A stretch of 64,000 nucleotides of DNA from Escherichia coli (GTDB taxonomy: Bacteria > Pseudomonadota > Gammaproteobacteria > Enterobacterales > Enterobacteriaceae), in the NCBI RefSeq assembly GCF_030013205.1, contig NZ_CP122648.1. One strand, written 5' to 3'. Positions 3,207 through 4,664 of the stretch are shown piece after piece (position 1 is the first letter of the stretch; every line of letters begins with the position of its first letter). The position numbers and the translations under genes were made by a program. The notes beneath the pieces are model-generated. The model made no database searches. It had not been told where the DNA came from and saw only the letters and a list, made by a program, of their open reading frames with translations.

Positions 3207-4664
3207 CTATTTTTTAGCATTCGCATCCAGCGGAGCGGCATAACAACTGTAAGAAAAACATTCGCTGGAATGATTGGCGATATCTTTAAAGTTGCTTTCA
3301 GCAACCCCCTCGAACATGAGTACCGTTCTGGACAACTCTCCGTTGTCATTTATATGTGGAAAATCAAATTGTGTACTGAATCGCCATACATCTGTCTTTT
3401 CTGGCTCGCTGTTCACAGAGATACGTCGATGGAAGACTCCTCCTGAAAACGTGCGCCAGAACAATTGGCGATCAAAATCTTGTAATATCGCAGACTTAGA
3501 TGCTATTTGACGTAGTAAACCTGCATACCGTGGACTGCCATTACGAGCAACATTATGCAAACCCTGACTAAAAGCATCAAACAAACAATAGATGTGATCA
3601 CTAGTGAAAAAAAGTCTTAATTTTTTTTGTTCTTCATCGCTGTAATCCAGGAGCATCTCATTGATTTCTTCCGGTGAGAATTTTAAGACAAAATTATCCT
3701 CAGGATTTGTTTCTTTCTTGTTTTTTTCACTATTCTTCTCCTCAATGGTCTTCGCATTTTGTTTCGCAATTTTTTCCGCATTTTCTTCCTCAGTTTTTTT
3801 CGCAATTTTTTCCGCAATTTTTTCCCGAGTTTTTGATTTTAGACTAACACCATCGATGTCAACCGGTGTTGTTTTCAGATCTCTCTGCGCGTCTTTCAAA
3901 TTTGTCTTATAGAGATCGGGCACTTTATCGGCAGATAAGTATCCGAATGAAGAAATCTGGTGTGTACGCATGGGGGGCTGTTCACAAAGCATCGAGGCTA
4001 TATCGTCTTTAAACTCTTTTACATTAAAGTTATCGGCATTAACCTTCCCTGTTATAAACCCCGCATCGGCAATTTTCTTCTCTAATTGTTTTGTACGTTT
4101 AGAATAATAAGCGTTGTTATCATAAAACTTTTCAAGAAGGGCCCACTCCTCAAGCTGCCTTATGTGATTTTTCAACTGTTGATGATCTATTTTATATTCA
4201 TGTGTACTAGAATCATTTTGGTTGCAAGAGTTACAGATTTTTAAGCATAATTTTCCATCAGATTTATCATCTATGGTATCAGTGAAAATATAGGACACTT
4301 CAATACTCCGCCCGTTCTTATCAGTCATCTCATATGACCATTGCCCCGTTCGTTTCGCATTCTTAATGAGTTCGATGGACTCTACAGGACAACCATGAAG
4401 AATGGGCAGAATTTTATCAGGATGCTTAATGAGTAAAATTATTATATTTACAATATTTGAAAAGAAATCTTTGCTATTTTTTATTTCATCGATTTTTTCC
4501 GCTGAAATGTTTACTAAGTTTTCATTTCCGGAAATGAAAAGCAATTTGCCATGGGGGCTTTTTTTAAATTGTTCTTCTGTTTTAGAAAAAACATCCTCTT
4601 TAAAAGGTGGCAACTCAGTACCAGTAATAAACGGTTTTAATAAATTCGAATTTGAAATTGTCAT
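3207..4664 (-). CDS. hypothetical protein, 485 aa, no recognisable family; likely horizontally acquired
   Basis: Uninterrupted 1458-bp ORF in strongly AT-rich DNA where random long ORFs are improbable; Cys/His cluster (C-x3-C-x2-C then H-x5-H-x6-H) and central E/K-rich repeat; no K-12 counterpart recalled at this position. Confidence 0.75.
   Translation of the reverse strand: MTISNSNLLKPFITGTELPPFKEDVFSKTEEQFKKSPHGKLLFISGNENLVNISAEKIDEIKNSKDFFSNIVNIIILLIKHPDKILPILHGCPVESIELIKNAKRTGQWSYEMTDKNGRSIEVSYIFTDTIDDKSDGKLCLKICNSCNQNDSSTHEYKIDHQQLKNHIRQLEEWALLEKFYDNNAYYSKRTKQLEKKIADAGFITGKVNADNFNVKEFKDDIASMLCEQPPMRTHQISSFGYLSADKVPDLYKTNLKDAQRDLKTTPVDIDGVSLKSKTREKIAEKIAKKTEEENAEKIAKQNAKTIEEKNSEKNKKETNPEDNFVLKFSPEEINEMLLDYSDEEQKKLRLFFTSDHIYCLFDAFSQGLHNVARNGSPRYAGLLRQIASKSAILQDFDRQLFWRTFSGGVFHRRISVNSEPEKTDVWRFSTQFDFPHINDNGELSRTVLMFEGVAESNFKDIANHSSECFSYSCYAAPLDANAKK
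3700..3850. repeat. imperfect in-frame tandem DNA repeat inside the 485-aa ORF
   Basis: Repeated unit ttcgcaattttttccgca (coding strand gcggaaaaaattgcg, giving AEKIA) seen at ~3774-3791 and ~3811-3828 with degenerate neighbours; encodes REKIAEKIAKKTEEENAEKIAKQNAKTIEEKN. Confidence 0.7.

Follow-up and report, generated by a model that had tools for sequence, protein, structure and literature searches.

The window analysed here is a stretch of 64,000 nucleotides of Escherichia coli DNA, the relevant region of which is 100% identical to strain ETEC4079. Between the convergent genes acpH and malZ lies a low-GC island (positions 3190 to 4848; 33-43% GC, with flanks of approximately 52% GC), 1.66 kb in length, which was delimited by composition and by alignment to REL606. 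In the latter strain the island is absent and the stop codons of malZ and acpH are located 4 bp apart, and it is in this 4-bp gap that the island lies. It carries a single gene, an open reading frame of 485 amino acids on the minus strand (3207 to 4664), taken from the list of open reading frames and homologous to ECs_0454 of O157:H7 Sakai, within which the repeat studied here is found. The frame contains no internal stop codon compared with 17-59 in the other five frames, and its ATG start, as read from the sequence, is preceded at a distance of 7 nt by a GGAG Shine-Dalgarno element (4662 to 4675, minus strand). A consensus sigma-70 promoter was looked for upstream of the gene and none was found. 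A nested hairpin of 11 + 5 bp, predicted by folding at -31.4 kcal/mol (z = -4.7), is situated between the malZ stop and the start of the orphan frame (4771 to 4818, minus strand). It is absent from island-free REL606 and probably represents the terminator of malZ, located within the island. On the other side, the mechanical reading frame of acpH spans 2551-3186 on the plus strand (211 residues), while the RefSeq gene measures 582 nt (193 residues) and begins with MNFLAHL at 2605, which is probably the true start. In most pairs of strains, dS among the repeat-bearing alleles of the orphan gene (0.02-0.07) is below the value for its core-genome neighbour acpH (0.12-0.23), and two strains with identical acpH (L001 and L009) have orphan alleles approximately 10% apart. 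These observations suggest that recombination has had breakpoints at the edge of the island and that the island has a history of its own.

The gene is present in approximately 1125 of 5426 complete E. coli genomes (~21%), always at the acpH-malZ locus and always in single copy, and every RefSeq genome inspected labels its product “hypothetical protein”. The named homologues all belong to Escherichia or Shigella. An exhaustive HMMER search of 1.84 billion representatives returned only the protein's own 50%-identity cluster, its own fragments and one marginal PKD-containing protein, with no relative detected outside Escherichia/Shigella, which upholds the description of the frame as an orphan given by an earlier, sequence-only reading of this DNA. 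Comparison of the whole protein with Pfam, NCBIfam, PADLOC, PHROGs and PDB, by both sequence and profile, gave nothing above noise, and separate scans of the N- and C-terminal parts against Pfam at E <= 10 yielded nothing useful. An initial guess, that the product is a T3SS effector of the EspY/SopD type, was supported by no family search. Nothing relevant was found in the literature on the locus, searched for ECs_0454 and for MLVA/VNTR markers near malZ. The gene is, in short, an uncharacterised and fast-evolving orphan restricted to Escherichia and Shigella.

Tandem Repeats Finder, together with a repeat scan, delineated an in-frame tandem array at positions 3720 to 3834 (minus strand), which is composed of 12-nt (4-codon) units with a higher-order period of 36 nt and codes for residues ~277-315 of the 485-residue protein. 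The period of 12 was recovered in 6.1 copies at 3753-3825 (80% matches, score 90) and the period of 36 in 3.2 copies at 3720-3834 (score 121), and the separate scan detected six in-register copies spaced 12 nt apart. The units are imperfect, with 75-80% matches. In a match search with the 18-mer TTCGCAATTTTTTCCGCA, written as on the plus strand, two exact copies were located at 3763 to 3780 and, 36 nt from the first, at 3799 to 3816 (minus strand in both cases), accompanied by copies with three mismatches at 3751-3768 and 3811-3828. These four matches compare with 0.16 expected, and none of 100 dinucleotide-preserving shuffles reaches four, indicating that the head-to-tail copies exceed chance. 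The tandem repeat noticed inside the orphan frame by the sequence-only reading is thus real by Tandem Repeats Finder, repeat scan and shuffling alike. Its positions for the 18-mer (~3774-3791 and ~3811-3828) require correction, as the exact copies lie about one unit to the left, inside the interval it had assigned to the repeat. The Glu/Lys-rich peptide that it quoted as in frame, REKIAEKIAKKTEEENAEKIAKQNAKTIEEKNSEKNKK, equals exactly residues 280-317 of the minus-strand frame, the repeat being in register with the frame at four codons per unit.

The variation of the array between strains was analysed in 120 non-redundant homologues, in which the segment was measured from VDIDGVSL to ETNP, used as fixed anchors. 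Seven anchor-to-anchor lengths were obtained (38, 42, 46, 50, 54, 58 and 62 residues), and the total protein lengths range from 469 to 493 residues in steps of four. In a protein alignment of seven intact alleles, with lengths of 461, 481, 485 and 489 residues, all indels fall in columns 290-302. At the DNA level, each in-frame indel among eleven aligned alleles is confined to the array and is a multiple of 12 nt, with sizes of 12, 12, 12 and 72 nt. Counting units across aligned homologues had been the check put forward with the repeat, and an invariant segment within a folded domain had been named as the outcome that would argue against a variable linker; it is clear from these lengths that the segment varies, and that the indels are located only in the array. 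Moreover, in each of three protein clusters whose members are identical at all 438 flanking residues, two to three length classes occur. Since flank-identical proteins differ in unit number in three backgrounds, this indicates that the copy-number events are recent, independent and recurrent, and the predicted proneness to expansion and contraction finds its counterpart in these whole-unit changes. Different lineages gain or lose different units, always where the adjoining DNA copies are most alike. For example, the units changed in the KFKTRER lineage are AEKT/AKKT, and deletions between exact copies of GAAAAAATTGCG explain the 481-aa and 469-aa forms of the window's own lineage. Sixty of the 1125 carrier genomes were further inspected, sampled evenly along a score-ordered list and not at random. 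Relative to the window, the array is shorter by 12 nt in 28 of them, equal in 19 and longer by 12 nt in eight; the remaining genomes are three with a frameshifted allele and two with a repeat-less one. It should be noted that some singleton alleles derive from draft assemblies. The array is not hypermutable, since one length is common to all 16 O157:H7-type rows of the sample (H78-H93).

A natural allele from which the repeat is missing provides a control for this behavior. In the L009-type allele (L009:708-2093, strain JX21CE8) the central block is replaced by diverged, non-repetitive sequence, with 26-64% identity across residues/columns ~276-400 and at least 80% at both ends, and it reads RRHLADII where the other alleles read REKIAE(E/K)IA.... 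The allele is carried by 31 genomes (JX21CE8 and 30 others) and its reading frame is kept open. In all 31 the central block measures 351 nt at an identity of at least 99%, so that no length variation is present where the repeat is absent. The block is taken to come from a more distant lineage of the orphan gene, which did not turn up in any database searched. Because whole-unit indels are confined to the array, occur in three flank-identical backgrounds and are missing from the invariant repeat-less allele, the slippage reading of the repeat is supported by the alleles compared.

At the protein level, the segment is 50% Glu/Lys in its richest 30-residue window and only 10-17% hydrophobic. The AlphaFold model of the 485-aa allele, with a mean pLDDT of 43.8, places a helix at residues 277-303 (pLDDT 64-78), followed by a short low-confidence helix at 307-312 and a stretch at 308-325 with pLDDT below 50. 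In the longest allele (493 aa) the predicted helix extends over residues 277-311, a gain that matches the 8 added residues exactly, and the tail beyond it is once more unstructured. This tail, a degenerate Glu/Lys/Asn stretch of residues ~304-325 (KTIEEKNSEKNKKETNPEDN; 3690 to 3755, minus strand), is mostly without confident structure in both alleles. Overall confidence is low in both models (mean pLDDT 44-46), and the helix is among their better-scoring regions (pLDDT 54-78). The segment is therefore most likely, on the predicted structures, a solitary solvent-exposed alpha-helix with a disordered tail of ~20 residues. The linker proposed by the sequence-only reading is retained at low confidence, through a modelled helix that lengthens with added units, its unstructured tail, and a natural allele in which the whole segment is exchanged with the frame open.

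Taken together, we consider it probable, well short of certain, that the array is an in-frame, whole-unit variable number tandem repeat (VNTR) which forms a variable helical spacer in an orphan protein and evolves in a near-neutral manner. The unit is 12 nt of the approximate form GCG-(G/A)AA-AAA-(A/T)T(T/C), coding A-(E/K)-K-(I/T/N), with units grouped in the 36-nt repeat. In the proposed mechanism, whole units would be added or removed when near-identical adjoining units slip during replication or recombine unequally, either of which fits the data, resulting in E. coli alleles whose central segment extends from 38 to 62 residues and whose frame is never broken by unit changes. As a spacer, the segment would then keep an N-terminal part of ~275 residues apart from a C-terminal part of ~160 residues. 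By standard helix geometry (4 x 1.5 Å), each unit would add approximately 6 Å of helix, and the span from the shortest to the longest allele would be approximately 36 Å. The spacer role is a reading of the modelled helix, and the two-module picture and the helix itself are weakly grounded because both AlphaFold models are poor. We infer that the length variation is tolerated, in near-neutral fashion, rather than selected.

The alternative that survives best holds that the frame is a decaying or functionless passenger, in which the repeat varies for want of constraint and the segment is no linker between working domains. We judge this unlikely, though with enough in its favor to be taken seriously. 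Analysis of substitution demonstrates whole-gene pairwise dN/dS values of 0.5-0.9, with some pairs above 1 (one at 1.7), versus 0.01-0.05, and up to 0.19, in the adjacent acpH. The pooled changes in the orphan gene amount to 29 synonymous, 69 non-synonymous and 1 stop, giving a pooled omega of 0.63-0.90; with kappa >= 2, the shortfall from 1 does not reach significance. From these counts, the gene appears to evolve almost neutrally and, because there is little purifying selection on it, the “spacer” may lack any role. The passenger explanation further gains from the frameshifts in ~5% of sampled carriers, from the 79% of E. coli genomes in which the gene is absent, and from the lack of any family match or confident fold. 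It has to contend, however, with 485 codons kept open in DNA of 35% GC in which the other frames hold 17-59 stops, with the GGAG ribosome-binding site before the start, with an intact frame in more than 90% of sampled carriers, and with a mild depletion of nonsense changes (1 seen versus 3.4-4.8 expected). Long invariant blocks, present in both flanks of the allele alignment and exemplified by residues 419-470, also argue against it.

The flanking parts were compared with known domains in the same context. The notion that the repeat separates two functional domains gains no support here, as the flanks match no family, model poorly and have dN/dS values of ~0.6-0.9. Nor are cysteine and histidine specific to the N-terminal part, since the C-terminal part contains invariant C360, C469, C474, H357 and H412. 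For residues 101-158, a candidate Ig-like beta-sandwich domain of the PKD kind, there is a single distant HMMER match to a PKD-containing protein (P0140, E = 2.7e-4), three PKD repeats of which match the same stretch; hhalign gives a probability of 33%, Pfam gives no match even at E <= 10, and AlphaFold places beta strands at residues 104-160 with low confidence. The N-terminal part also contains an invariant C-x3-C-x2-C motif, CLKICNSC (C140, C144 and C147; window positions 4224-4247), which from its sequence could be a metal site. A radical SAM enzyme was considered for this CX3CX2C pattern and rejected, there being no Radical_SAM or other Pfam/NCBIfam match.

A more elaborate form of the spacer reading, for which we see only slight probability, would regard the gene as a young one, confined to Escherichia and Shigella, in which successive amplifications of a 4-codon seed are producing a helical spacer. 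Diversifying selection would act on the length of this spacer, a molecular ruler that sets two modules of an unrecognised effector or defence protein apart. The RRHLADII form of the repeat-less allele may accordingly preserve the pre-expansion state.

It is distinctly unlikely that the segment is a phase-variation switch, in which 1-nt slippage in the A6-A8 runs that the repeat units give rise to would toggle the gene between off and on. An A6 run (T6 on the plus strand) lies inside the array at 3818 to 3823 (minus strand); in the frameshifted gene of ECSC054 (DNA alignment, L007, deletion at gene nt 842) it is shortened to A5. An A7 run (T7 on the plus strand) at the distal end of the array, at 3721 to 3727 (minus strand), is extended to A8 in O145 RM9873-C1, whose gene is likewise frameshifted (L004, insertion at gene nt 937). 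OkiPb01695 also carries a frameshifted allele. Of the four frameshift alleles that were sequenced, three are altered by +/-1 in such a run, two within the array and one in an A8 run at 3622-3629, and it is this that lends the switch its appeal. Nevertheless, runs of A6-A8 are short for high-rate switching by comparison with contingency loci, only 3 of the 60 sampled carriers are affected, and a +/-1 homopolymer difference is the commonest error of long-read assembly. Furthermore, the main polymorphism consists of whole 12-nt units, which are unable to shift the frame. The frameshifts in A runs could represent weak phase variation or, equally, homopolymer assembly error.

It is very improbable that the segment is a coiled-coil region for oligomerisation, an option that the sequence-only reading had offered. 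A helix is predicted by AlphaFold in two alleles and Ile/Ala residues are regularly spaced; against this, the periodicity is 4.0 residues, with a hydrophobic moment that peaks at 0.39 at 90 degrees and falls to 0.06 at 100 degrees and 0.015 at 102.9 degrees, where the 3.5-residue heptad periodicity would appear. The hydrophobic content is only 10-17%, and changes of 4-residue units would displace any heptad register. As neither a heptad pattern nor an amphipathic face is present, the heptad coiled coil was rejected. Finally, chance low-complexity in AT-rich DNA, suggested by the 33-38% GC of the island and its T-rich plus strand, is refuted by the two Tandem Repeats Finder scores, by shuffles that never reach the observed 18-mer matches and by strains that differ in whole units, and its probability is next to nil.

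Returning to the variable spacer, the array resembles the in-frame coding VNTRs, or minisatellites, used in MLVA typing, in that the units are head to tail and of strain-variable number, the indels comprise whole units, the frame is kept by a unit length divisible by 3, and changes are concentrated where adjoining copies are most alike. It differs from them in its imperfect units and in being stable in the O157:H7 clone, so that it would be slower than the typing loci; the locus was not found as a named typing marker in the literature searched. Regarding the encoded segment, likeness to ER/K helices and to TolA domain II is seen in a Glu/Lys-rich segment of low hydrophobicity, predicted to be a long helix that lacks packing partners, placed between two other protein parts, with a length set by short tandem peptide units. 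ER/K single alpha-helices are typically ~70-80% Glu/Lys/Arg, and the central helix of E. coli TolA (domain II) is rich in Ala, Lys and Glu. Unlike the ER/K helices, the present segment is only 50% charged, with Asn, Thr, Ile and Ala in addition, and its helix is predicted with modest confidence. The very high charge content of that class is thus lacking (50% E/K), with 14 opposite-charge i+3/i+4 pairs in 40 residues. The contingency loci of Haemophilus, Neisseria and Campylobacter share with this gene slippage-prone coding repeats, strain variability and a few alleles frameshifted in A runs, but a 12-nt unit alters length and not expression, and here the homopolymers are short and the frameshifts rare. 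In the alpha C and Rib repeat proteins of group B Streptococcus, repeat number likewise changes protein length between strains. Their units are whole folded domains of ~80 residues in secreted, wall-anchored proteins, whereas the unit here is 4 residues and no signal peptide is evident on reading the N-terminus.

Gain and loss of whole repeat units is a well-known kind of variation with an ordinary mechanism, here in an unstudied gene. The locus offers a natural example in which it changes the predicted length of a linker, with a built-in control in the repeat-less allele, and the array could serve as a typing marker with a slow clock. It also draws attention to ECs_0454 as a fast-evolving, uncharacterised orphan found in O157:H7 and in approximately a fifth of E. 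coli. Any biological payoff hinges on a function for the orphan protein.

Elsewhere in the window, a frame of 169 residues at 8332-8841 (minus strand), between proY and brnQ, presumably resembles an IS200/IS605-type (Y1) transposase or a REP-associated relative, as judged by its HIHMLVEIPP motif. An intact frame of 982 residues at 35545-38493 (minus strand) adjoins hemB and has a signal-peptide-like start and an autotransporter-like C-terminus, and a low-GC patch at 38-39 kb coincides with its 5' end and upstream region. Further low-GC patches are located at 28-29 kb, in the phoA-ddlA interval, and at 43-44 kb.
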